64,000 nucleotides of DNA, taken from assembly GCA_017499595.2 (NCBI GenBank), contig CM038998.1:186001-250000 (forward strand), written 5' to 3'. Both the position numbers and the translations under genes were made by a program. Below, one piece after another: positions 20,441-49,597 of this stretch. Position 1 is the stretch's first letter. The number at the start of each line of letters is the position of its first letter. Origin of the DNA: Psilocybe cubensis (taxonomy: Eukaryota). Below the pieces are notes generated by a model. The model saw nothing but the letters and a program-made list of their open reading frames with translations. It did no database searches and had not been told where the DNA came from.

Positions 20441-20793
20441 CGTGAACCTTCAAATTCTGAAAGGAAGGAACGGGTGAAGGTCGCAGAAGAAAAGCAGGTG
20501 GGAGGAAGGAGGGCAAGTACACCATCGAGTCAAAGTCTGGACCACGCACGTCGTCCCTGCCCTGAACTCTGCACTGGTTTCCGACGCCCTGAACGCGTAA
20601 CGCCCTACCCGCTGTCGTTCATTTCAATCGCATACTTATGTGACTGGGTTGCGTTGAATTGACAAAGGTACGTTAACCTCCAGCGCCAAGAGATGAAAAT
20701 GTCATCACACAGCGCCGGCCGGATGAATTGACAGGGATTTTTCCACGATCACGAGGTAGGAGGGAAAACGTGATTTTAACGCGACATTGACGC

Positions 20794-20802
20794 GAAGTGA
20801 GG
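20794..20802 (+). repeat. Left target-site duplication GAAGTGAGG
   Basis: Identical 9-mer immediately flanks both element ends. Confidence 0.9.
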
Positions 20803-20928
20803 TAGGCTCGTACACCAGTCGTTTCTGACTCAGCATATTTCGAGCTCCGCTCGGTTTCGTCAGAAACGGCTGGGCCAAACGGTTCGGTTTTGGCAGAGTC
20901 ACGCTTTGTCACGTCGGACTTAGTGAAA
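20803..20928 (+). repeat. Left terminal inverted repeat with internal hairpin
   Basis: TAGGCTCGTACACCAG-[stem-loop]-CTGGGCCAAACGGTTCGG...TCGGACTTAGTGAAA matches the reverse complement of the right end. Confidence 0.85.
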
Positions 20929-20978
20929 TTCGAACAACTACGTTACCAACTACCCCGCGTCGTACTCGATTGCGACCA

Positions 20979-23900
20979 CTACCCGTCCCCTTCCCCCTCG
21001 AATTCTGAATCCTCTGAATCCTCAATAACATCGTACTCCTCCTCTATTTCCTCAAGATCCATGTCAAGGTCCACATCCCTTTCTGTGGCACGAGGTAAGG
21101 TTTCTTCCACTTCTTCACTGTTGTCCGCCTCCTCAGCTGACTCTTCTACTTCCATGTCATCTCCAAAACCCTGCATGCTAGACTCGCCCATACTGTCTGA
21201 AGCTGAAGCATGATTTGAATATACAGAGGATGTAGAGACTGCATTTGGGACAATCTGGATATCCAGAGGTTCACTTTTGATGGAGGTGGGATGTGCAGGT
21301 ATGTCCCTTTCATTGTCTGTTTCATCTGCAGAGACTGGGTTCATTTTTCGTCGTTTTTGAAGCTTTTTAAAGGAGTTGTTGTAGTCGGAAAGGGGGTTCT
21401 TGCTGCCTGTAGTAAGATTTTGCAATCCCACTGAAATGACATCCTTTACCATCTCATCGTCGTTGAGTGATCTTCCTTTTTTGATAGTGTACACCTCGTG
21501 GTCAGAAAGACTTTCCATTAAACTGCGAATGTCGTTGGTTAGGTCGGGCGGTGCATGTTTGGTACCTTGGTCTGATCCGAGTGTGTCGTTTAACATCTTC
21601 TGTAGGTCGGATAGTGCAACAACGCATGGTGATATAATTTCAAGCCATTCCCATGAAGCATTTGATCCCTTGGCTTTATAAAGAACCTAGAATATGAAGT
21701 GAGTCGCCTGTTTCTTTTTGTGAGAACAAGAGCTTACCTTTATCCGAAAATTGAGGTGTTCTTGAACGAGATCCATCTCGACAAATCGATTAGGCTCTCC
21801 CGAAGGATTGAGTACCCAATTCTTCAATACAATATCGCTGACAAACACTCTTTATGAATATAGTATTTGTACCACACTAAAAGCTCACGTACCGAATTGC
21901 TTTTGGCCAAACGTGAGTTAGATTATGAATAAGGTGAAGCATTTCATGTGCATATTTTGTTCTGCCGCTTCCTCGGAAACTAAGTGCCCAGGTTTTTAGA
22001 ACCAAGATAATTCTTCCCGAGTCTCCAGATTTAATCGCGTCATTAAACTCGCGAGTAATCAAGGCATCACGTAGAAACAGTGATGCGTTTTCAAACACCA
22101 TATCACCTTGGGTAGGTTTTTTGTTTTCCTCGTCCGACATATCCATCTCTTCATTTCGCTGATCGCGTAATTCTTCAACTATTAGAGAGTTGGCGTACTT
22201 CTCGAGTATCATTTCAGCGTGATGATAAAGAGCTTGCCAAGTTGTGACATTGGCACAATACTTGTCTAGTGACGAATAATTTGAGACTAGAAGTAAGCAA
22301 TGCAGCACGCGAGAGTAAAGTGATACAAATACTAAGTCACGGCATGTTCGAAAGGTTGGCAAGCTTGTTAGGGTTATAGGAAGCCTATCAAGGCAAGTGT
22401 TGTGAAACCATAAGGAGCCAGGATTTTGTGCTCCAGTATCCGGGCGTCCAAAGTGGTTTAATAGCATGCCGTGTGAGTCTGCAATTTTCGCGTGAAAGAG
22501 ACCTGGTATCCAAACGCCCCAGAAATAGCCCTCCAAGCCACTTTCTTGACCAGCGCGGATGTATTCTAATGCTCGGAGGCGTGCAAGAGATAGCTGGTCA
22601 CCGCCTAAAAAGCGAACCTGGTTTGAAGCATCAGGATTTTTGGGTTTTCCCTGGCTGTCAACTAAATCTAGCTCTTGCATAATGGCTGTGACAACATCTG
22701 CATTTCCGGTGATGGTTGATTCATCAATGGGCCATGTAGGAAGAGGATGAAGATTGGTTTTATGCAGTGGAATAATGTCAGGTGTCTGCGGTTGAGATTT
22801 TGCTAGCTCTTTTGTAAACCGTTGAAATCCCGGACCACCATGATTAATGATAATACGCAAGATGGTGTGAACCAGATTAGCTTTTAAGGATTTTTGCTCG
22901 TCACTGTTGAGTAGAATTTCTTGAATCTGAAGGATTGGTGCTTCCAAAAATGATAACTGGAACTTCTGAAGATTAAGATCTTCTATCTTGGCATCAAAGA
23001 GTGGTATTAACGTGGCACATGTTCCATTTTCTTGTGAATCTACGTGTGTGGATTAAGCGCCCAAAAGATGACTGGAAATACATTTACTTACCGTGTCGAC
23101 CAATTATTTGTTCCGTATTATGCATTCGCATATTCACATTATCATAGTCGGTGGAAAATAGACCAGTTGCAGCAATTTTACGAGCCAATAAGCGTGCACT
23201 TTCAGAAAGCTGATAAAGAGTTCCAGTTCGCTTTTTGACAACTACAACCTTGTTGGATGTGTCAGGGTCCAGAAACGGATTGCTATCAGTCCGTGATGAT
23301 AATTTGGGCTTTCTCATTCGGACCAGATTTTTTGTCGTCAGATTTGTGTAACTTTCCGATAGTCCTAGTGATGAGAGTACACTGATACATTGCCTTTGAG
23401 CCCCAGAAGAATACAGATATAGCCCCAGCATCCGTTTTGGAAGATTGTTGGAGTGACTATACTCCCCTAGACAAGTAAGCGCCGTAGATGTAATGATCTA
23501 GTTAGAGAAGGATTAGTAATTTGCACTAGCATGAAGAGTATTGGTTGCCTTTTTGGTGCGCTCTTTTCTTGCAATAGTATGGGTGTTGGCACGATGGGAT
23601 GTTGAAAATGCTTCCAACATTTGCATGGCAACTGGAGCGAGTTCTGTGCAAAAAACATTGTAGAGTTGGTTATAGCTAAATTGATTTGCGAGATTGGGAT
23701 CAATGGTTTTGTTCATCGTCAACAGAATTCTTGATCGAGTAATGACCAAGGCTTCTCGAGCTATTTTCCGGGCACAATAGGTTGTAATCCATTCGTCAAT
23801 CTTCTTTTTGGCAATTTTAGACTGGTTATCGGGTGATAGCCACCAGTCAAGAAGCATGATGGGATTTTCAGGCTTGGAAAAGAAGTGTTGATATCGGATA

Positions 23901-24265
23901 ACACCTTTTTTGTGTATAGGATTAAACACATATTCCATGAGATCCCATACACGCAAGTTGGCATTTTCTAGGGCAGACAGAATACCGTCCAAATGTTTAG
24001 ATTTGCTCACTATATCTTTCCACTGCTTTGCTACTTCTCTAGACCTTAAAGCAGCTGCGCGTTTCTTGTGTCCCTTTCTACGTCGCTTTTGCTTTTTGGT
24101 TTCAGGTGATCCTGTAATGTTGCTACTTGGAGTTGCAAGCGAGACACGGCTAATACTTGATGGGGGTAGACTTGACCGCACTTTAGCGCGAGGTGTACTA
24201 AATGGATCACCGTCTGATTCTGATTCTTCATCAGTAGTTGTCCATAATTCATCGTTGTCGGACAT
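20979..24265 (-). CDS. Academ-type transposase (DUF6589-like), 5 exons
   Basis: Motifs DYDNVN, ESTITGN, GGDQLSLARL, PGLFHAK, IKSGDSGR, YAHEML, DLVQEHLNFRIK (candidate D-D-E); exons join in frame; acidic C-terminal tail. Confidence 0.85.
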
Positions 24266-25733
24266 TGCAATAGAATACAGTAGACTGCAGTGACAATGAA
24301 AGGTAAAACATGGTTGAACAGATATTAGACAATGATTGGTCCCCCATCAGCAAAAGTGACCAGACCCCCAAATGCCTTGGGAGCCTTATAAGGCATGCCA
24401 ATGTTTTACGTGACACAGTAATGTCACGCAAAACATTTGGGCAACATTTGGGAACACTCAAATCATTTGGTGGTCATTTGGAGGCCCCACCAACATTTTT
24501 GAAGCACAAAACAAGCACCAAATAATTTCTAGTAACTACAATTTACAAAAAAAAATTTGTACACTGTGCAACCTTGAAGGAATCATTTAACAAAATTAAA
24601 AGAGGTCACAAAACATTTGGTTTTACACTTCGGTTATGAGAAATGTTTACAGGACTTTCAAATGCTGATGAAATAATTCATCCACACCAAAATTTACTGG
24701 CTATACAGCCACATTAGTTCTAATTAGAATTCTGTACAGTTGGTCACCCGGTCTGTACAATTTCTCGACTGTCAACGAAGTCACAATGCGATCAGCGTGA
24801 ATCGGAGTGAATCGGAGATCAAATATTTGTTTGTTTGTGCATAATAATCTCTTTCAACCCCCGTTTCTTTCTTTCCACATACTCTCATGTTCACTACTCC
24901 GGCGACGCTTGGTGGGACTTGGGCTTGGACTTTTCAACTCTAAGTCTTCGTATATCATAGCTGAATCTAACTCACAGGTAATTCTGCCACTTCCTTTCTG
25001 ATTAGATCATCCTCAACTGACCATGTATCTGCCTTTCCGTAGACCGTTCTCCTTCTGCCTTAGATCTACTGGATATCCGGCTTGGTATATAATCATTCAC
25101 TAGTTCCCAAACTTTTAGGTGAGTATATGCGCACTTCTGCACACACACCTTGCTTACATCATGCAACCAAAGTAGCTCCTATAATTCATGGGTACCATCT
25201 ATTGATGACATTGTCTCAGCATCATTTTGTTATTTAACCACTTTCTCGCTTCTCTGTACCTTTTGGAGTCATGTTGTAGTATAAGTTTTCTTAATGCAAC
25301 AAGTTCTTTTTACTTGCTATGATAATCTGAGGGATCCACTAAATAATGAACCATGTGAACTGTGTAAAACATTTAAACACTGGCAAATGTTTGCCAAATG
25401 TTTTTGGGACTCCCAAATGTTGCCTAAATGTTACGGACACTCTCAAATTTTAACCAAATGATTTGGCTATATTTAGTACTACCTAAATCATTTGCTTGGA
25501 ATAAATAATTCGAAGCCTTTCAGTCTTCGGAGTCTCTCGTTACGAACCGCACAATGCCTTTCGGGCATTGGGGCCTTTGGACGCCTCCAAATGCCTTGTC
25601 AAGGCATTTGGGGATCCGAGCACTTTTGCTGATGCCCTATTCCCAATTAGGCTTCAAGTCGATCAAATTGACAAAGCTCGAGAGTCGAATAATTTTTCAA
25701 GCCTTCAATTTCGATTTCTCACCACATTTTATC

Positions 25734-28244
25734 ATGCTGCATCCTCGTATCATTAAGCAAAAAAAGAAGGCACCAAAGTCTACACGTTCCTTTGCAACAC
25801 AACGCTCACAACGCCTAAAAGCATTCACAGCAGAAGATCTCAATGGTCTTGCAGACAAGATTAAAAAATACTTTAAATGGAGCCATACGCCGCGCGACTT
25901 CCAACTTGAAGCAATCAAAGCACAACTGCAGAATCGTGATGTACTTATTCATGCTGGGACGGGCAGTGGAAAAACCTTTATTGCCGCAGGCCCACATGCT
26001 TATGAAAAAACAGAGGGAATGGTAACAATAATGGTGTCTCCATTAATTGCTCTTCAAGACGAGCAGGTAAGTATATATGTGTATGTGCGCCAACGGCGAT
26101 AAGTAATTTACAGATACTTACAAACAGCTATAGGCAGAAAATTTCACAAAGGAATACGGACTCTCTGCAATCGCAATCAATAGCGCTCATGGAGGGTGCA
26201 CAGTGGAAGTTATGAAGGCATGCCACTCATTTTATTTTGGCTTGAAGTTTTATTAATCAATAAGAAGAATATATGCGCAGGAAAATGGCGGATTATAGTA
26301 ATCTCACCTGAGATGATACTTTCAAAACGCTTTATCAACAATGTTTTACGAAAGCCTGAAATGCGAAACCGTCTTCTATCAGTGGTGGTTGATGAGGCCC
26401 ATGTTGTGTCGCATTGGGGTTCTGGCTTTCGAAAAAAATACGGAACATTGGGAATTCTCCGCGCTCTACTGCCAAAAGACATTCCAATGGTTGCTATGTC
26501 AGCTACCCTTCCTGCGCGAGTTCGTCACGACGTCCTAAACAAGCTGCAATTTGACCATAACAACTACCTCTACCTTAACATTGGCAACGATCGACTGAAT
26601 GTCTCTCTTGTTGTTCGTGCTATACAGAATCCAATCAACTCTTACAGTGATCTCAACTTTGTGGTACCTGCCGATGTTAAAGAGCCAGATGACATCAAAA
26701 AAACATTCATTTACGCCGACAATATCACTACTGGAATTGAAATAATGGAATACCTCTACGAGTCATCAGGTGCTCCGGATTCATTTCGACAGGCTGGAAT
26801 TATACGTACATATAGTGCAGCATTTTCATCGGACTATCGTCGAACAGTCATGGAACTTTTCCGAAAGGGTGAAATCCGTATTCTTATTTGTACGGATGCG
26901 GCGGGAATGGTATGTTCTCTATAGCTCAATGTACAGTTAAAAATTCACATGCAGAATTAAACAGGGATGTAACATACTAGACATCGACATGGTTGTGCAA
27001 TGGAAGCTTCCATCCACAGTCTCATCATTTGTCCAGCGCGCAGGAAGAGCAGCACGAGGCCTTGGAAGAGTTGGTTTGGCCGTTCTTCTAGTTGAAAAAT
27101 CAGCATACGAGTGCGACTTGACAAAGATAGGATCATCAGTCACATCAACTGTTAAAGCCAAAAAAACAAAGAACATACGTGAGGCTACAACATATCCCAA
27201 AGCAACCGACAAAGACTATGCAATAAACCATGGATCTCGCCGTGGAGCGCATGGTGCACACAATACTACCCTTGACTCTAATTGCGATGTTCCTGTGGAC
27301 TTGCATGCCATTGACGAAGGTCTGTACAGTTTGGTACAGACAACAGTATGTCGACGGAAGGTTTTGAGGATAATATATGGAAATGTTCAATCAGGTACGT
27401 GCCAGTTTGTTTCTTAAACAAATAGAAACTCACTTATATCAAAGAGCCAACTGTTCCGTGCTGTGATCTATGCACTCCTTCTCTTCTCGATCTAACCCGC
27501 CCTGCACCGGCTGCCCCAAAAACACAAAAAAAAACGTCTACAGAAGGTGCAGTAGACCCAGAACTGCGAAAAGTTATTCTGGAATGGCGCAAATCTTTGT
27601 GGCATCGTGATTTTGGAGATTCAATGTTTGGACCATCTGGTATACTGTCAAATAATGCTGTCAATAAGCTGGCTTCGTATGGTGCAATTTTGCGACTAAC
27701 CGAGCTCGATGAAATACTAGGAGGAAATTGGCCCTGGTTTGGTAAGTATGGTGATGAACTTCTAGCACTGTTCAGAACAACAGTAATCGCACCTGCTAAA
27801 CCCAAGCCCTCGAGGGCTCGAACGACCGCTAAACGAACATTGGATGGAATCATGGGGGAAAGTGAGGGTGAGAACGGTGAGGAAAGAAAGCGACCGCGTC
27901 TCACTTCAACAGACATGCCATCGACGGCTACCAGTGCCGTGGCTTCTAATTCCCGCGCCACTCTGCCACCTGCAACTCCTGCGAGATTTGTGCCACCAAT
28001 TCAATATCCGTATTATTATCCAACCATCTCTCCACATACTCCGCAGAACACGAGGCATGTTATGCAGGGAAACCCTTATGCTGGCTATCTGCAAACACCA
28101 GCATCTTCAGCTGGAAGCTATATTCCTTCTAGTCCTATTCTTTTTAATTCCCCACATTACTATCCTTACTTCGGTCCTGCTGTCCAAATGTCGAACCGCC
28201 CGGACCTGCCATCTAATCTTAGAAGCAGTTCACCTGCGCCATAA
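25734..28244 (+). CDS. RecQ-like SF2 (DEAH) helicase of the transposon
   Basis: FQ..AI, AGTGSGKT, SPLIAL, VVDEAH..HWG..FR, MSAT, CTDAAGMGCN, QRAGRAAR, CRR..CCDLC Zn site, HRDC-like segment. An upstream in-frame ATG at 25554 is an alternative start. Confidence 0.9.
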
Positions 28245-28409
28245 TATATGATTTTTCGGCTCAAATTACAAGTCATTTTTTTCTCAAAAATTTTTTTTTT
28301 CGTGACCTTGTAAAAATGAATTTTATTATAAAAGAAACCTATCTAAATGATTCTGTAGACAACTTTTTTTTAAGTTGTGGAAGGTTGTTGTTGAGGCAAA
28401 TCGCGTTTT

Positions 28410-28612
28410 TTTCACTAAGTCCGAGTCACAAAACGAGGATTCCCTCAAATCCGAACCGTTTGTCCCAGGCCTTCTGTGAATCTCTCTCTTTTCGCACTCC
28501 GATCAATGTTTGACGACATAAACAAAGACAACATTTGTACAAACATATCACTCGGTACCTGCCTTATCTAGAAAAGAGACGAGATTCACAGAAGGCCTGG
28601 CTCGCGAGGCTA
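28410..28612 (-). repeat. Right terminal inverted repeat with internal hairpin
   Basis: Reverse complement reads TAGCCTCGCGAGCCAG-[stem-loop]-CTGGGACAAACGGTTCGG...TCGGACTTAGTGAAA. Confidence 0.85.
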
Positions 28613-28621
28613 GAAGTGAGG
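28613..28621 (+). repeat. Right target-site duplication GAAGTGAGG
   Basis: Identical to 20794-20802. Confidence 0.9.
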
Positions 28622-29158: not shown

Positions 29159-32545
<3,387 letters not shown>

Positions 32546-34090: not shown

Positions 34091-36575
34091 ATGGATCGCT
34101 TGAAGCATTTGAAGCAGCTGATTGTCCTCTCAGCGATTATTGTACGTTACAAAATATACTTTCATCATCAAATATTCACTCTAACACCATTGATTTCTCG
34201 ATTTCTTACAGGTCTCTACGACCGCATCGCCATCTGGGGTGCATGAAGCCAGGCAAGCCACATCCAGCCTTCCAAGCGGATGGTCCGCCATAGGATGCTT
34301 CAGGTATGCCTACTCATCACACTCATCTCCAATCCCACTGCTGTATCACTTCTGAATAACAACAATCCCGAAAAACTAGTGACTCCACCGATGCACGCAC
34401 GCTGCGCACCGCTGCGTTCACAGATGTAACTGGTATGACCATTGAGTCGTGTCTTGCATTTTGCGTACCGGCTGGGTACAAGTACGCCGGTGTCGAGTTC
34501 TCCAGGGTGAGATTTCATTTATTCCCTGGCTGCCGACGCGACGAAGATGATCGAATTTGCGTTTCAATCAGGAATGCTGTAAGCTTATCCCTAGCCACCG
34601 TTTAGTTAATAATAACGGTAATTTATAATCTATGGGTTGACTAGACTGCGACAACAACATCGAATCTCCCGGTGCGCCAATCGACGCCTCGGCATGCTCC
34701 ATGCCGTGTACAGGCAACTCTGGCGAAATATGCGGAGGCTCCAACGCAATAAACATTTTCCAAAGGTGTGTGTTTACAGCCATTTCTCCAACCAACACAA
34801 TACACATCCTAACATGCCAATTTCTTCAGCACACCGGCGCCACCGCTTCCGTCTGGATGGGAGGCCGTGGGCTGTTTCAGGTATATATCTCCTGCACTGT
34901 TTGTATACTTGCGAGAGCGGAATGTGCTGACACAAAAGCTAGTGATTCCACGGACTCGAGGACTTTACGTGTAGCCTCGTTCACGGATGTAACTGGTATG
35001 ACCATCGAATCGTGCCTTGAATTTTGCACCCCAGCCGGATACAAATACGCCGGGCTCGAGTTTGCTAGGGTACGTCCAAGTGCGCCGATTCCCCAGAGCT
35101 ACAAACATTCTGATTATCTGTGAAATGTATATAGGAGTGCTGTGAGTGTCCATTGTTTACAAAGACGCAGAGTCAGCGTTGAGTATGTATGTTTCTGTGT
35201 TAATGCTTCTCATAGACTGCGATAACGTTATCGAGTCCCCCGGAGCGCCAATTGCCGCATCATCCTGCTCGACACTTTGTACAGGTAGCGGTGTCGAGAT
35301 ATGCGGTGGATCCAATGCACTAAGTGTATTCCAGACGTATGTGATCGAAAATCCAACATCTATCAGACGACTGCACTTTGCTAACATCATCAAATCAGTA
35401 CCGAGGTTACCCCTCCTCCGCCTCCCCCAGCAAGCATCAAGCAAACAGCTGGAACCTTCAACTATGTTGGCTGCTTCACGTGCGTTAACCCCTCACTCTG
35501 CGTTGAAGAGTTGAAGATATTTAATTTTATCTGAAGTGATGCTGTTAATGGAGTGCCACGGTCTCTGGCTACAAAGGTCATGGGTGGAGACGCAACCGCT
35601 GAGACATGCACCGCGGCGTGCAAAACTGCCGGATTCGCACTCGCCGGATTGGAATTCGGTGGAGAATGCTGTATGTTTTCTACACTATACATTTCTATCT
35701 CATTGTCCTATTCTGACGAGTCGCGGCTTCATTGTTGTTGGCTAGGGTGCGACCACTACATGGCAAGGGCAAACCACGTTCCAGACTCTGACTGTAACTC
35801 TGTATGCGATGCCGACCACACCGAGCTCTGCGGTGCTGGAAACCGCCTCGCGGTATACCAAGACACGACAGCTACACAACTCAGCTTCCAAAATTGCATC
35901 CCAAGCTCGTTGATTACCCCCAACAGTCAAACGCCCTACGATTTCACGTTTATCATGAGCCCCGGTCCAGCAGGAGGTAGCCCAGTACCGTTGGCCCTCA
36001 TTCCCAACGGCGATCCATTCCCCATCCACGCAGGTGCGACTACGGAGCAGTTCTGGCAGCTCAGTGTAAGATTATCCCCTTACTCAACTGTGTAATATAA
36101 CCGAAACTCATTGTGTTTAATCTAGGGAAGGACGTTTGTACCTACCACACTTACACCGAAGCAGCCCGTAGAGTTTGCCCTCAACGGAGGCTTCATTGAC
36201 CCAGATCAAGTTACTCAACAGTTCAACCAGCCCATTCAGCCCGAACCCGGTAGCCCCATGCAATTTGAAGCAACGGGAATAGCTGTGGACGATTTCTCCG
36301 GCTACTGTGCTATGGTACGACCCATCATAAACACACTCTCCTTCCTAACCGCTAAGGCTGCCATTTTTTTTTGCTAGCCAAACCCGTCGATCACATTTGG
36401 GTCGCTATTTGGACCACCAGTTCTCGGTGTCACAGCGGACGGAGGGATTACAGGACAATCTAACATCTGGTCATCGTGCCAAAGTTCCCCGGGACCTTTG
36501 GACCCCATCTTCCAAGCTTCTGCACCGAGGAATGTTAACTGCACCAGCGTATTTTTAGAGATGCCTCCCATTTAG
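34091..36575 (+). CDS. Secreted WSC-domain protein (3 WSC) with a C-terminal domain of unknown type
   Basis: Signal peptide; three repeats of GCF.D..RTL..MTIESC..FC..GYKYAG.EF..EC.CD...C...C.G...EICGG.N...VF. Confidence 0.85.
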
Positions 36576-44447: not shown

Positions 44448-45758
44448 CTACGGGAGTTTGGGGACAATGGAGGAGATAGGGATGGGGCTTGAGAGAATGG
44501 AGGTGATAGGGATAACGACTGTCGAGGCAGTGGCAGTAACAGTCGTACCGGTCTTCACGCTGGTGCTGGTCGGAGCGGCCGAGATCGAGGAGATGGCGAC
44601 TGTAGACGCGGACACCGTGGGCGCGACGCTCGTCGACGAGCTACTGTGTGGGACAGCGGCGGAGGAGCTGCTGACGACGGGGGGCACGGTGTACACGGAC
44701 AGTCTGTTAGCGGCACCGCAGAGCTCTGTGTGGTCCGCCTCGCAGGCGCGCGAGCAGTCGGTCAGGGCGGCGGTGACGTTCCCGGCAAGTGGGTTGAATT
44801 GGTTGCCACACCCTATAAACCGATTAAAGAAACATTCGTCAGTATATACATTTGTATCTGAGGCCGAAGACAAAATGCGCACAGCACTCTTGGCCAAACT
44901 CTAAGCCGGCCATGGTAAACCCAGAGGCTCCGCAAGCGGTTGTGCAGCGCTCGATAGTAACTCCTGGGATGGGGATAGACTGAATCAGCGTGCGCTGGCT
45001 GGTTCCGACGACATCCCTATCAAATCCAACCAAAATCATCAGCTACTCTACTCTGGGGTAACAACACAATCTCATCACGTACTTGAAGCAGCCGCTGAAC
45101 ACAAAGTTTCCGACCTTGGCCTTGTTGGTCGGGATAGGCCCAACGCCGGTGTTGCTGTTCTGGTACACGCTGATCAACGACGCGCCTCCACAGTCGATGG
45201 TGCTGTCTCCTCCACAAGGGAAGTTGCACTGCGTGTCGTTAACCTTGACTGCGGTACCTTGGATGTTAAAGTCGCAGTCTACACCAATGCCGCGCGTCAA
45301 TGGTCTATCACCAGCGATGTAAGAAGCGAGACGTACAGCACTCGTCCGTGAACTCGGTTCCTGCAAAGTTGAGGGGTGTGGAGAAGTTGCCGCAGAATTC
45401 AGTGCAGAGGGCAGGGGTCATGCCCGGATTGACGATGTTGTGCTCCTGGAGAGTGCGTTGCTGAGGGACAGCATCCCTGTCATCAAAGAAAGAAGAATCA
45501 GTGATCCTCATAAGCATGCCATTGACGCTGAGTCTTGCGAAGGCTTGTCTACTTACGTGAAGCAGCCAACAAAGGTCCATCCTGGAAGAGGCGCGTTCGG
45601 ATTTGGCGCTGCCGCGGTTTGCCTGCTGTTGAGATCGGAGGGCAGAGCAAATGAGGACTGCAAAGAATCGGTAAGCTCCAAAAATCGTTGAACATATGTA
45701 CAAGAGATTAACGCACAGACAGGACGGTCGCGAGGAAGACGAAGCTGGACAGAGACAT
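44448..45758 (-). CDS. Secreted two-WSC-domain protein with S/T-rich tail
   Basis: Signal peptide, GWTFVGCF-D..RTLQ..MTPALC..FAGTEF..EC-CD..CGG; second WSC ends CEADHTELCGAANRLSVY. Confidence 0.88.
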
Positions 45759-48352
45759 TTCAACCAAAAGTAATCTGCAGTGAGGATGTCGATCCCTCTT
45801 TTCAACGACGAGATTTTATACCTGCTGGGTCGGTCAGGGGAGGCTGCTCTCAAGAACATCAAGATTCTCGATTCCATTGGATGCATACCGAAACTGCATT
45901 GCACTCGTCCAAAATGGACGAGCCGCACCAATTGGCACTCGATCAGAGGTTCCACCAGACCATCCGCGTCCATTAGCGAAGGTGACCTGCGTAGGTACAT
46001 CCGTCTGCACAGACGGAATGATGCGCACAGTCAGATATAAGGCCCAGGGACCATAATCCCGCCCTCGGCTGGCATACATTTCTCCCTATAACATGCTTTC
46101 TTCCCTCCTCTGTCCTTCACCCGTCAAACAATATAACATCGAAGCACAGGGGCCAATTGACTCAGGAGAATACAAGCAGACTGAGCGGAACCAGAGCTGT
46201 TGATTTATGATGACCTAGTATAGCTTGTTCCTGTGCAGAGTTCGGCATCGTGTTAATTTTTCGTTCGAACTTCGGAGGACAAGGACGTGGGTGTGAAGTC
46301 GGAACCGGTGTCAGTCGTCTAAAAATAACCGTCGACGTGAAATGGGCCCGTGGGGCGCCCAGGGGTTTAGGAGGCGGGGCTTTTTTTAGACTAGAGGTCG
46401 ACGTTGTCGACAAAATGCATTGCTGTGCTTATACCGCATTGGCTATGGCCAATAATGGTTGAGTGGTACTACCCTGCTATTTCTGGGTTCATTTCTGTTT
46501 CCACAATAATGATCCAATGGACAGTGTGTCCAAGTAAAACAGCGACAAGAAAAGCTTTGCAGTTTAGACGGTGGGGATCCTAGCTTACAGCAAGGCAATT
46601 AAAAACTAATCGCATCAGAACATATTGAAGCCACTTCATATATCAACCTCGTAAGATTAAGTAACATAAGCTTGAGAAGGACATCATACAATGAACGGTT
46701 AAATCTTTGAAGGCAAAGGTTTGGAGCATACCTTCCGTTCTTTTCCTTTAGAGGCAAATGTGTGGATTGCAGACGGAATTTTTGACTCCTCCATTTTCTC
46801 TGTGAAGCTTTTAAAAATCTGACAGACTGCATTTCTAGCAGACTGCATGGTGTATTTAATATTGCTATTGTCATCCCTTCCGATATCAATGACTTCCTAT
46901 GAGACTTCGTTATCTTTTTGAAAAGCTTTTCTGCTAGTTCCTGTGAAATTCTCCCGGTCTTTGTAGCCCCAAGCACAGTAACATCAAAGAGTTTTCGTCT
47001 GCCACTATATCCAAAGAGATCCAAATGTTTCGCGTCATCCTCTGTATATTGCGTAAAGATAGATTTACTCCTCTAAGGACGTAGCCGCTGCAGCTACGGC
47101 CAAAATGGGTTTGCCAGTTGATAATTGGATAGTAGATAAGACTGACGTGGAGTTTATCCAATCACAAATAGTAGTAAGGATCCGGATAGCGTCCTTGAGA
47201 TACTCGTTCCCAATGCCTGGAGTGCCAACCAAAAATACGAGCAGGCCGCCCTAGACTTCCTGCTGTGCCCTTCACCAGATCAAAAGGATATTTTTCATGC
47301 CAACTTAGTCCAAATAAATAGAAATAGGGAATCCACACTTGTATGCTTCAATCTTGCGTTCATTATACTTTCTGACACAAATTAGTCAGTGTTCACTGTT
47401 GACGCGTTGACGCCCCGTAGGGCAGAAAAACTTCCATATTTGGAAGTACCCCTGAAAAGGTTTTTCCAGTTTAGCGGATTCGAGGGCGAAAATCAGCAAA
47501 AATGCGGACAAACCCCAGAAGAGCCTCCAGGGCCATGATTGAGCATAACTGATAGAACCTCTTGTGTATTCCTAGCAGACGCCGTGTTTTATTATTACCC
47601 ATGTGAAATATTAGGAATTCCTCTCATGTTGGCTTACAGTAAACTTAATGACTTCCCATCATTTCAAGCCTTTTTATTGTTCCGTCGATCTGTGGGGATA
47701 CGGTGTTACTATTTCGTTCAGTCCCATGCTCTGTCAACCTTACTTCCAAATTATCATTTCAAAAACATTATCCACCACGCGATGACATTCCGGGCATCCT
47801 CGCATCATAATGGATTCCGCATGTTCCGGTGAACTAACATTCAAGATTCAAACATTGGAAGCTTCGGCATTGTTTGGCAGCGGGAAGCGTACCCGTGATA
47901 CCGAATTGCGGCGGACAAGAGTACTGAGCCTGTGAGTCGATTTTGCAAGTGGTGTACCTGGTATATATCAGTCTGTGGTGAATACGAGTCGATTGAGCCA
48001 GCTTACTGCCCGTCAGCAAAGGCTCATACCCGCTTATTTGTATTAAAAGGAGATTCTCTCCACCATTCAAATATTCGAATGAAGTATACAAGATCAGTCC
48101 AGCACACATGTGTAATGTGCCCGAAACACCGAGTGTGATAATTGATAACAAGGGATAAAATTGTTCAAACCAATTAAGCTTCATAACTATTGCATATCTT
48201 CAATCACACGTAATAAACACGAAATTGCTAAGAAAATTGATGTATTAAATATCTAGCATTCTCCACGATGCCCGTAGGAACAATTTTACATAAAAAATAA
48301 TATGGGGCAACAGATCAGCTCTCAAAGGCCGGTAACGGTGGAACCAGAAAGC

Positions 48353-49597
48353 TTAAGCTGCCTTGGTGGTGGTGGTTGGTGGGGCAGAAGTTGCAGTGGT
48401 CTTGGCCGTAGTCGATGTTGTGGGTGGTGGAGCAGTTGTTGTGGGTGGTTTCGAGGTGGTGCTGGTGGTAGGAGGGACAGCAGTAGTACTCGGCTTCGCA
48501 GTTGTGCTGGTAGTAGGAGGGGGAGCACTCGTGGTTGGTGGGGCGGAGCTGCTAACGACGGGGGGTGGGATGGAGTATACGGACAACCTGTTTGCAGCCC
48601 CGCAAAGCTCTGTGGGGTTTGCTTCACAAGCTCTGGAGCAATCTCCGAGGGGGGCGGTGATATTGGCTAGAGGAAGGTTGAATCCGTTGCCACACCCTAT
48701 AGAATATCACCGTTGGTATCAGACTTCATCGTGGTAAGACGGCAAGACGTACAGCATTCTTCGCCGAATTCCAAACCAGCGAATGTGAATCCGTTCGCGA
48801 GGCAGGTCCCAGTGCAACCCTCAATAGTCACTCCACCCTGAACGGTGAAGGATTCAAGCAAGGTTCGTGTATCTGTACCATCGACATCCCTGTAGAATAA
48901 TGGATGAATCAGTAAAGGTCCGTTAGCAAGCAAGATTTGCACTCACTTGAAGCATCCATCAAAGGTAAAGTTTCCGACCTTAGCTTTGTTAGTCGGAAGT
49001 GGGCCAACGCCAGTGTTGTTATTTTGGAATATGCTGATCAACGAAGCTCCTCCACAGGTGAGAGTGCTATCACCCCCACATGGGAAATTGCACAACGTGT
49101 CGTTGACCTTGACAGCCGTTCCTTGAATGTTGAAGTCACAGACTAAAAAGGCACAAACCGTCAACAACTTCCCTGAGTTGATTCTGGGGTATTTATATAC
49201 GTACAACACTCATCGGTGAACTCTGTTCCAGCGAAGTTGAGCGGTGTGGTGAAGTTACCACAGAACTCGGTGCACAACAGGGGAGTCATGCCTGGGTTGG
49301 TGATGGTGTGTTCCTGGAGAGTACGGGTTGCAGGAGCAGCATCGCTAGTCGTCACTGTCAGCGATTGTAAATGGCCAGGAGTACAAGAACTCACGTGAAG
49401 CAACCAACAAAAGTCCACCCAGGAAGTGCCGCGTTAGGATTTGTCGCGGCAGCTTGCCTCTGGCTCAGCTCGGATGGAAGTGCAAGGGACCCCTGTTTAC
49501 GCATATCAGCGTTTCATGAATTGAAGCAAACGTGATTGTATGAAAGCGAAATTACCGAAAGGAATGAAGCGAAAAGAGCTAGGCGTGCAAAAGACAT
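48353..49597 (-). CDS. Secreted two-WSC-domain protein with P/T-rich tail (paralog of 44448-45758)
   Basis: Near-identical exons to the neighbour (CDFNIQGTAVKVND.CNFPCGGDST..CGGASLIS..TNKAKVGNF.F.GCF). Confidence 0.88.

Follow-up and report, generated by a model that had tools for sequence, protein, structure and literature searches.

Hairpins inside the split terminal inverted repeats of fungal AcademH transposons, their two-ended remnants and a possible staggered excision

AcademH is a lineage within the Academ group of DNA transposons, reportedly described by Kojima in 2020. We take DUF6589 to be the Academ transposase. According to passages of PMC10045372, AcademH elements encode a helicase and are flanked by 9-10-bp duplications. 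Academ entries in the PMC8290104 supplement, as far as it was covered, start with TAG and have a 9-bp duplication. No description of hairpin ends or remnants was found in the covered literature on Academ and AcademH ends, which did not include the original AcademH description, and the word "hairpin" is absent from the searched portions of the main text of Academ-citing papers (PMC10799480, PMC5751038, PMC8290104, PMC10045372, PMC12210899). The portions of this literature that were covered hold no characterised mechanism for Academ transposons.

IS200/IS605 elements and Helitrons carry subterminal hairpins, i.e. a structured single-stranded end near the cut site. In hAT (Hermes) and RAG systems, a hairpin is made on the flank during cleavage. 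In the P element, according to passages of PMC7776569, cleavage of the transferred strand is at the end, whereas its partner is cut 17 nt further in; looping out and re-pairing of the transferred strand are also described. The same passages state that the internal binding site is spaced differently at the two ends and that BLM helicase is among the donor-repair factors.

We analysed a stretch of 64,000 nucleotides from Psilocybe cubensis (contig CM038998.1, positions 186,001 to 250,000), called the window here. It contains a transposon at 20803-28612, bounded by an exact 9-bp duplication (Table 1). Reads from other isolates join 20793 directly to 28613 (28 and 21 reads in two runs), as expected of the empty site. 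Duplication and empty-site reads together confirm the termini. Loose read ends are found at both termini in hundreds of reads. The element encodes a helicase beside a DDE transposase and has a 9-bp duplication and TAG termini with inverted repeats, features that it shares with AcademH and that fit this lineage of Academ DNA transposons. Two of its features, a hairpin inside a split terminal inverted repeat (TIR) and two-ended remnants, are not mentioned in the examined passages and tables on AcademH. The part of the TIR common to both ends begins exactly at the CTGG of each hairpin, and a conserved GACTTAG motif lies 43 nt past the CTGG of the left hairpin, inside the left inner TIR. Four further families of this genome (B, C, D and H) likewise have an exact 9-mer duplication; family G is an exception to the TAG start, with TAA at one end. 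The nearest protein relatives of the element's genes are from mushrooms, and no relatives of the element were found in viral contigs.

Table 1. Coordinates of the AcademH element and its parts in the window
Feature	Position	Strand	Basis
Left target site duplication, 9 bp	20794..20802	+	same 9-mer at 28613-28621; empty-site reads
Left outer terminal segment, 12 nt, TAG-N-CTCG-N4	20803..20814	+	loose read ends at 20803
Left terminal hairpin of 59 nt, with basal stem of 15 bp, CCAG/CTGG closure and small inner stem	20815..20873	.	pairing; DNA folding
Stop zone of most left-end remnants, terminus positions 47-61	20849..20863	+	truncated ends; read joints at 20851-20863
Left inner TIR	20870..20928	+	starts at hairpin CTGG; 82% to reverse complement of 28410-28468
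Transposase gene with introns, DUF6589, RNase H DDE fold	20979..24265	-	Pfam E 9e-107; tblastn; D, D, E present; fold
Nested 1290-bp TIR element, another family, between the two genes	24345..25634	.	17 near-identical copies
RecQ-type SF2 helicase gene with introns	25734..28244	+	DEAD and Helicase_C domains
Right inner TIR	28410..28468	-	82% match to left inner TIR
Right terminal hairpin, 136 nt, closed by CCAG/CTGG	28465..28600	.	perfect over 20 bp, or over 29 bp with one bulge
Right outer terminal segment, 12 nt	28601..28612	-	family copies; reads
Right target site duplication, 9 bp	28613..28621	+	exact 9-mer; empty-site reads

Three acidic residues of the transposase (D373, D531 and E794) are invariant across 62 relatives, and all three are present in the window copy. 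The structural model of a relative's transposase matches P-element transposase (Z 8.3) and Hermes (Z 7.9) about equally and at a middling level; the match to RAG1 has Z 5.0. Foldseek with the transposase model ranked Hermes first, with nothing at E 0.001 or better. The helicase model of a relative matches BLM, RecQ and WRN with Z of 25-27, and weak RecQ zinc-binding hits occur in 18 of 63 relatives.

The window element resembles several known systems in part. With the P element it shares unequal spacing to an inner site at the two ends and perhaps a related transposase fold, for which Hermes scores about as well. In contrast, the P element has a 17-nt stagger, a 31-bp perfect TIR, an 8-bp duplication and a THAP domain, with no encoded helicase or terminal hairpin in the passages of PMC7776569, whereas the window element has a 9-bp duplication, a split TIR of 82% identity and an inferred stagger of 50-140 nt; its duplication and TIR are not those of the P superfamily. 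The RNase H fold with a helical insertion and the unequal left and right ends are reminiscent of hAT (Hermes) and RAG; these, however, encode no fold-back spacer, and RAG spacers are fixed in length. Helitrons are similar in that they, too, encode a helicase. Both Helitrons and IS200/IS605 elements differ by their HUH chemistry and lack of target duplication, while the DDE fold, 9-bp duplication and TIRs place the window element outside the HUH group.

A second long copy of the window element's family (family A) is spread over approximately 85 kb (C5:3249731-3339257; L002, L003, L004, L020), with one half inverted. It has the same 9-mer at its two termini and a stop in the transposase, and it lacks the nested element. 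The latter is also missing from some reads and is not part of the end system. It sits 79 nt upstream of the transposase start and has CAG...CTG ends, an apparently 2-bp duplication, many relatives of 71-80% identity and four short stems of its own. Family-A ends are tangled at locus L034:129-1966, where a right terminus duplicated over 47 nt is found together with a short copy and with a right end that is cut at position 139-144; the flank of this locus resembles a tRNA gene by eye.

An earlier note, made from the letters of the window, had described a 15-bp stem with a 29-nt loop in the left end. The stem is present as described: 20815-20829 pairs with 20859-20873, with one T-G mismatch and a 29-nt spacer, 12 nt inside 20803. 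The loop has the length proposed, but it is not unstructured, as it contains a second stem of 5 bp. Folded as DNA, the left hairpin reaches -15.8 kcal/mol (z -5.7; not equalled by any of 200 shuffles). The 64-kb window has six stems that are 13 bp or longer, contain no more than one mismatch and enclose a loop of 3-60 nt; four of the other five lie within the nested element. The right hairpin is found at the same depth as the left, with z of -9.6 and -10.9 in DNA folding. The claim that the stems of the two ends differ while occupying the same position is thus correct as to position and only partly so as to difference, with 7 of 15 pairs common and 7 changed on both sides. Left arms are unchanged in 14 of the 15 full-length left ends listed for family A; the fifteenth is a decayed copy. 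A nested MITE was considered as origin of the hairpin and rejected, since there is no flanking duplication and the hairpin is present at both ends of unrelated families.

Relatives of the element were located via the transposase and not via the hairpin, which yielded the four more families in this genome and 25 metagenome loci. Families without genes (F, G and G2) were found by terminal-motif search. The 32 ends analysed come from eight families of this genome and 12 metagenome elements. All of them carry the hairpin, and each end consists of TAG-N8/9, hairpin and inner TIR. Among coding elements with both ends and duplication visible (A, B, C, D, H, L045, L046, L054 and L058), it is present in 18 of 18 ends, one of these hairpins being interrupted by a later insertion. 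The left end is visible in 13 of the 25 metagenome loci and has the hairpin in every case (two are the same element, and L065 is without the outer segment). No end was found at the other 12 loci, where the contig stops early in at least 10. Outside the 32 ends, the right end of metagenome locus L053 shows neither an outer arm nor a terminus, although its inner arm and inner TIR are present. The short amplified families A, C, F and G retain both hairpins.

The basal stem consists of 11-37 Watson-Crick pairs (median 18) in the 32 ends. When the closing 4 bp are set aside, the two arms of an end pair with each other at 252 of 320 positions, compared with 4162 of 9920 (42%) when arms are swapped between ends and 71-96 of 320 when they are slid. 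Folding gave z of -3.4 or lower in 28 of 32 ends, for spans that had been chosen to end in CTGG. By the anchored-stem score, motif hits unrelated to elements reach 0-7, complete ends 8.5-26.5. In six aligned left ends, 7 of 13 pairs are changed on both sides, which none of 500 shuffles equalled, relatedness being uncontrolled in this comparison. Because MAFFT misaligned divergent ends, two of eight left ends were left out of this pair count; the other counts were anchored by script. In two homologous right ends, 7 of 20 pairs are compensated and none is broken. There is hardly room for doubt that the pairing is real and selected. The suggestion of the earlier note that structure rather than sequence is conserved is supported by hairpins in all 32 ends and by compensatory changes in left and right ends; homologues without hairpins or compensatory changes, the finding it had named as contrary, were sought, and this attempt at refutation failed.

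The closure by CCAG/CTGG, which had also been proposed, is only half invariant. The inner CTGG is found in all ends, while the outer arm starts with CCAG in 23, CCAT in 6, CCAC in 2 and GCAG in 1 of the 32. An invariant CCAG was an artefact of the search pattern and fell once ends were located from the transposase side. At the fourth closing pair, a pyrimidine-pyrimidine mismatch is frequent when the outer strand is read (CCAT or CCAC facing CTGG), which corresponds to purine-purine on the transferred strand; such left ends are L042, L047, L054, L056, L059, L060, L064 and family G. A mismatch bias towards the transferred strand, which looked significant with 15 against 3 in 24 ends, shrank to 17 against 9 (p 0.17) in 32 ends without the shared column 4, and this bias was not used as support for the excision model given below.

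Several hairpins are rearranged. The short element L025:1097-1919 is a chimera with an exact duplication, in which the outer segment and outer arm of family F are joined to the inner arm, inner TIR and right end of family A. Tandem duplications of 58 and 12 nt are found inside hairpins of families D and H (L067:7812-7929, L069:3439-3490). The loop of a family-C right hairpin holds a 3.1-kb foreign insertion (L084:79-3187), with a 5-nt overlap that suggests the insertion's own duplication.

Distances around the hairpin are nearly fixed. In the analysed ends, the outer segment measures 11 or 12 nt. Hairpin length varies from 45 to 146 nt (left ends 45-97, right ends 78-146). The inner motif lies 43-45 nt past the hairpin base in seven ends and 55-56 nt in three, the hairpins there being 46-146 nt long. 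Fixed distances on either side of a spacer of free length would be in keeping with a spacer that is removed from between them by folding.

Many genome pieces of 110-310 bp consist of an outer part of the left end joined to an outer part of the right end. Exact duplications flank four of these remnants (L037, L038, L126 and L147), and older pieces have lost theirs. In other isolates, two of the remnants are seen again as joints within reads. No case of one remnant at two unrelated sites was found; in four pairs, both members have the same flanks. Against the literature covered, these two-ended, single-site remnants are the new part of the finding. As a comparison, the nested TIR family gave one truncated near-identical end and no two-ended mini-element (40 of 46 and 40 of 48 candidates scored).

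To locate the breaks, 26 junctions, including four long deletions, were entered by hand, giving 52 breakpoints. One-sided remnants were left out, as were three two-sided remnants whose breaks are unclear (L158/L180, L189, L195) and the deletion that founded the short C family, the breaks of which lie far inside at 481 and 442 nt. Positions were taken from BLAST ends, with an uncertainty of a few nucleotides in old copies; remnants shorter than approximately 20 nt per side are invisible to this approach. Inside hairpins lie 43 of the 52 breakpoints, and nine are further in. The zone 9-30 nt before the hairpin base contains 30 breakpoints, compared with 11.4 expected on shuffling among ends (p 5e-5). 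The zone from -8 to +29 of the base contains none, with 6.1 expected on the same shuffling (p 5e-4). Break position follows the end of the hairpin, with a Spearman coefficient of 0.83 for the 32 breaks of the first set that lie inside. Four different ends, whose inner arms measure about 15-29 nt, have an upper limit of -9 to -10 in common. Seven of eight distinct truncated left ends of family A stop at 47-56. Since breaks follow the inner arm and not a fixed distance from the terminus, the hairpin appears to act at the DNA level in vivo. DNA folding is in this way supported independently of covariation, and we consider it very probable that the hairpin folds as DNA in vivo. At the clean junctions, the parts are joined bluntly, over 1 bp or through a short filler, and those inspected show no fold-back extension. 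No circle or strand-change joints were found among the 15 of 46 read joints listed.

The earlier note regarded the hairpin as a putative substrate of the transposase or the RecQ helicase. Hairpin and remnants would both be explained by P-element-like staggered excision, that is, helicase-assisted cut-and-paste with a selected DNA fold-back. This is the reading we prefer, with confidence and doubt in balance. The transposase would bind at the inner TIR and nick the transferred strand at the terminus. The second strand would be cut deep inside, approximately 9-10 nt short of the hairpin base, at a depth of about 60 nt in the left end and 140 nt in the right. A duplex of this length between the two nicks would not separate unaided, and the RecQ helicase is proposed to unwind it. 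The long 3' tail could then fold into the hairpin, which would bring the terminal CTA-3' back beside the inner TIR whatever the spacer length. The flanks would keep 3' overhangs of element sequence. Trimming and end-joining of these overhangs would give rise to remnants; alternatively, they might prime repair from another copy, restoring the element. The preference rests mainly on the sharp inner limit common to ends with different arm lengths. Nine of the 52 breaks lying beyond the hairpins and the L053 right end without an outer arm speak against staggered excision. Remnants could also arise at the target, by loss of the inner part during insertion.

The strongest competitor, which we consider possible though rather doubtful, shares the helicase and the fold but not the deep cut. 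The helicase would extrude a cruciform or bubble, the transposase would see a contiguous TIR and cleavage would occur near the terminus, as in hAT and RAG; remnants would result from gap repair aborted when the new strand folds back in the inner arm, followed by joining of the ends. Several observations suit it at the expense of staggered excision. Both strands fold about equally well (one better in 16, the other in 14 of 32 ends), although staggered excision predicts folding of the transferred strand only. Of the inside breaks, 37 of 43 lie past the hairpin apex, which is also predicted by fold-back of a newly made repair strand and fits equally well. The distance from terminus to base shows helical phasing, implying a duplex constraint that staggered excision does not need; this phasing is weak (R 0.38, p 0.009 for 32 ends) and was seen after the fact. 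The first 24 ends gave p 0.0035 and those of this genome by themselves 0.23, and the eight ends added later were shifted. The tie of Hermes with the P element in the fold search is a further point in its favour. On the other hand, the break-free zone around the hairpin base and the limit common to four ends are contrary to it, and so is the lack of fold-back extension at the clean junctions inspected. Moreover, cruciform extrusion is costly with loops of about 100 nt, a size that the loops here approach.

It is improbable that the palindromes are a functionless by-product, with arms kept complementary by template switching in end repair. Such switching alters both arms together and so mimics compensatory change, and multi-copy ends do tolerate mismatches, the fourth closing pair included. 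Yet the hairpin is present in all 32 ends, starts at a fixed point 11-12 nt inside and ends at the inner TIR, the distance from motif to base is fixed, and the amplified short families keep the hairpin at both ends.

Slightly less probable still is a role at the RNA level, in which the hairpins would terminate the two outward-facing genes at their 3' ends or trigger small RNAs there. The hairpins do lie 105 nt (left, transposase) and 220 nt past the two stop codons. However, G-T pairs account for only 5 of the 48 mismatches on one strand and 9 on the other, and RNA energies favour one strand in 9 of 24 cases with a mean difference of -0.07, i.e. without strand preference. A search of Rfam over 20600-21200 gave one match, outside the hairpin (E 0.41, 15 bits against a cut-off of 86). 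Equal folding of the strands, scarcity of G-T pairs and lack of an Rfam match favour DNA over RNA; in addition, gene-less families keep their hairpins and DNA breakpoints track them. Least probable of all is that the arms are two inverted protein-binding sites in duplex DNA that never fold, since, despite the sequence conservation of the closing 4-6 bp and the weak helical phasing, complementarity extends far beyond the closing pairs to the whole basal stem, its letters differ between the two ends of one element, and a left arm pairs with the arm of the right end at only 95 of 220 positions.

If staggered excision is correct, DDE integration chemistry would be joined with structured single-stranded ends so far associated with HUH elements. 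We tentatively extend it, with doubt slightly prevailing, to fungal AcademH as a whole: DDE transposons with largely single-stranded donor ends, a stagger of 50-140 nt (several times that of the P element), opened by RecQ and enabled by the fold-back, whose overhangs would steer repair to recopying and hence self-amplification. Largely single-stranded ends and recopying would explain, if true, why the lineage carries a helicase. End anatomy and remnants yield predictions of the cut site in each strand and of the stretch to be unwound by the helicase. Staggered excision is directly testable with the material at hand, namely a recent copy with catalytic residues in place, short non-autonomous elements and a mapped empty site. 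The end pattern can also be used to annotate AcademH elements and remnants in mushroom genomes.

Insertion sites of the elements show a pattern of their own. Of 31 duplication-flanked AcademH insertions, five have gone into the outermost 160 nt of another AcademH end, and all five are flanked by a 9-bp duplication of their own (L070:4329-5174, L070:6270-7116, L104:989-1835, L126:130-241, L135:1501-2346). The probability of this by chance is 3e-11, or 6e-5 with a 20-fold hot zone, for a sampling partly led by end motifs. Two further AcademH insertions lie 21 and 39 bp from a terminus. The family-G copies L137:1501-2337 and L138:1501-2365 come from different contigs, yet both are inserted into a repeated sequence at an identical 9-bp site, with opposite orientations. 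This site is situated between inverted repeat arms and represents a target hotspot.

Elsewhere in the window, an aldehyde dehydrogenase gene with a low-complexity insert is found at 29199-31300, along with long simple repeats at 31400-32100. Diverged tandem duplications, 72-83% identical, are present at 34371-35343 (spacing of about 565 bp) and 44658-49453 (spacing of 3.86 kb).
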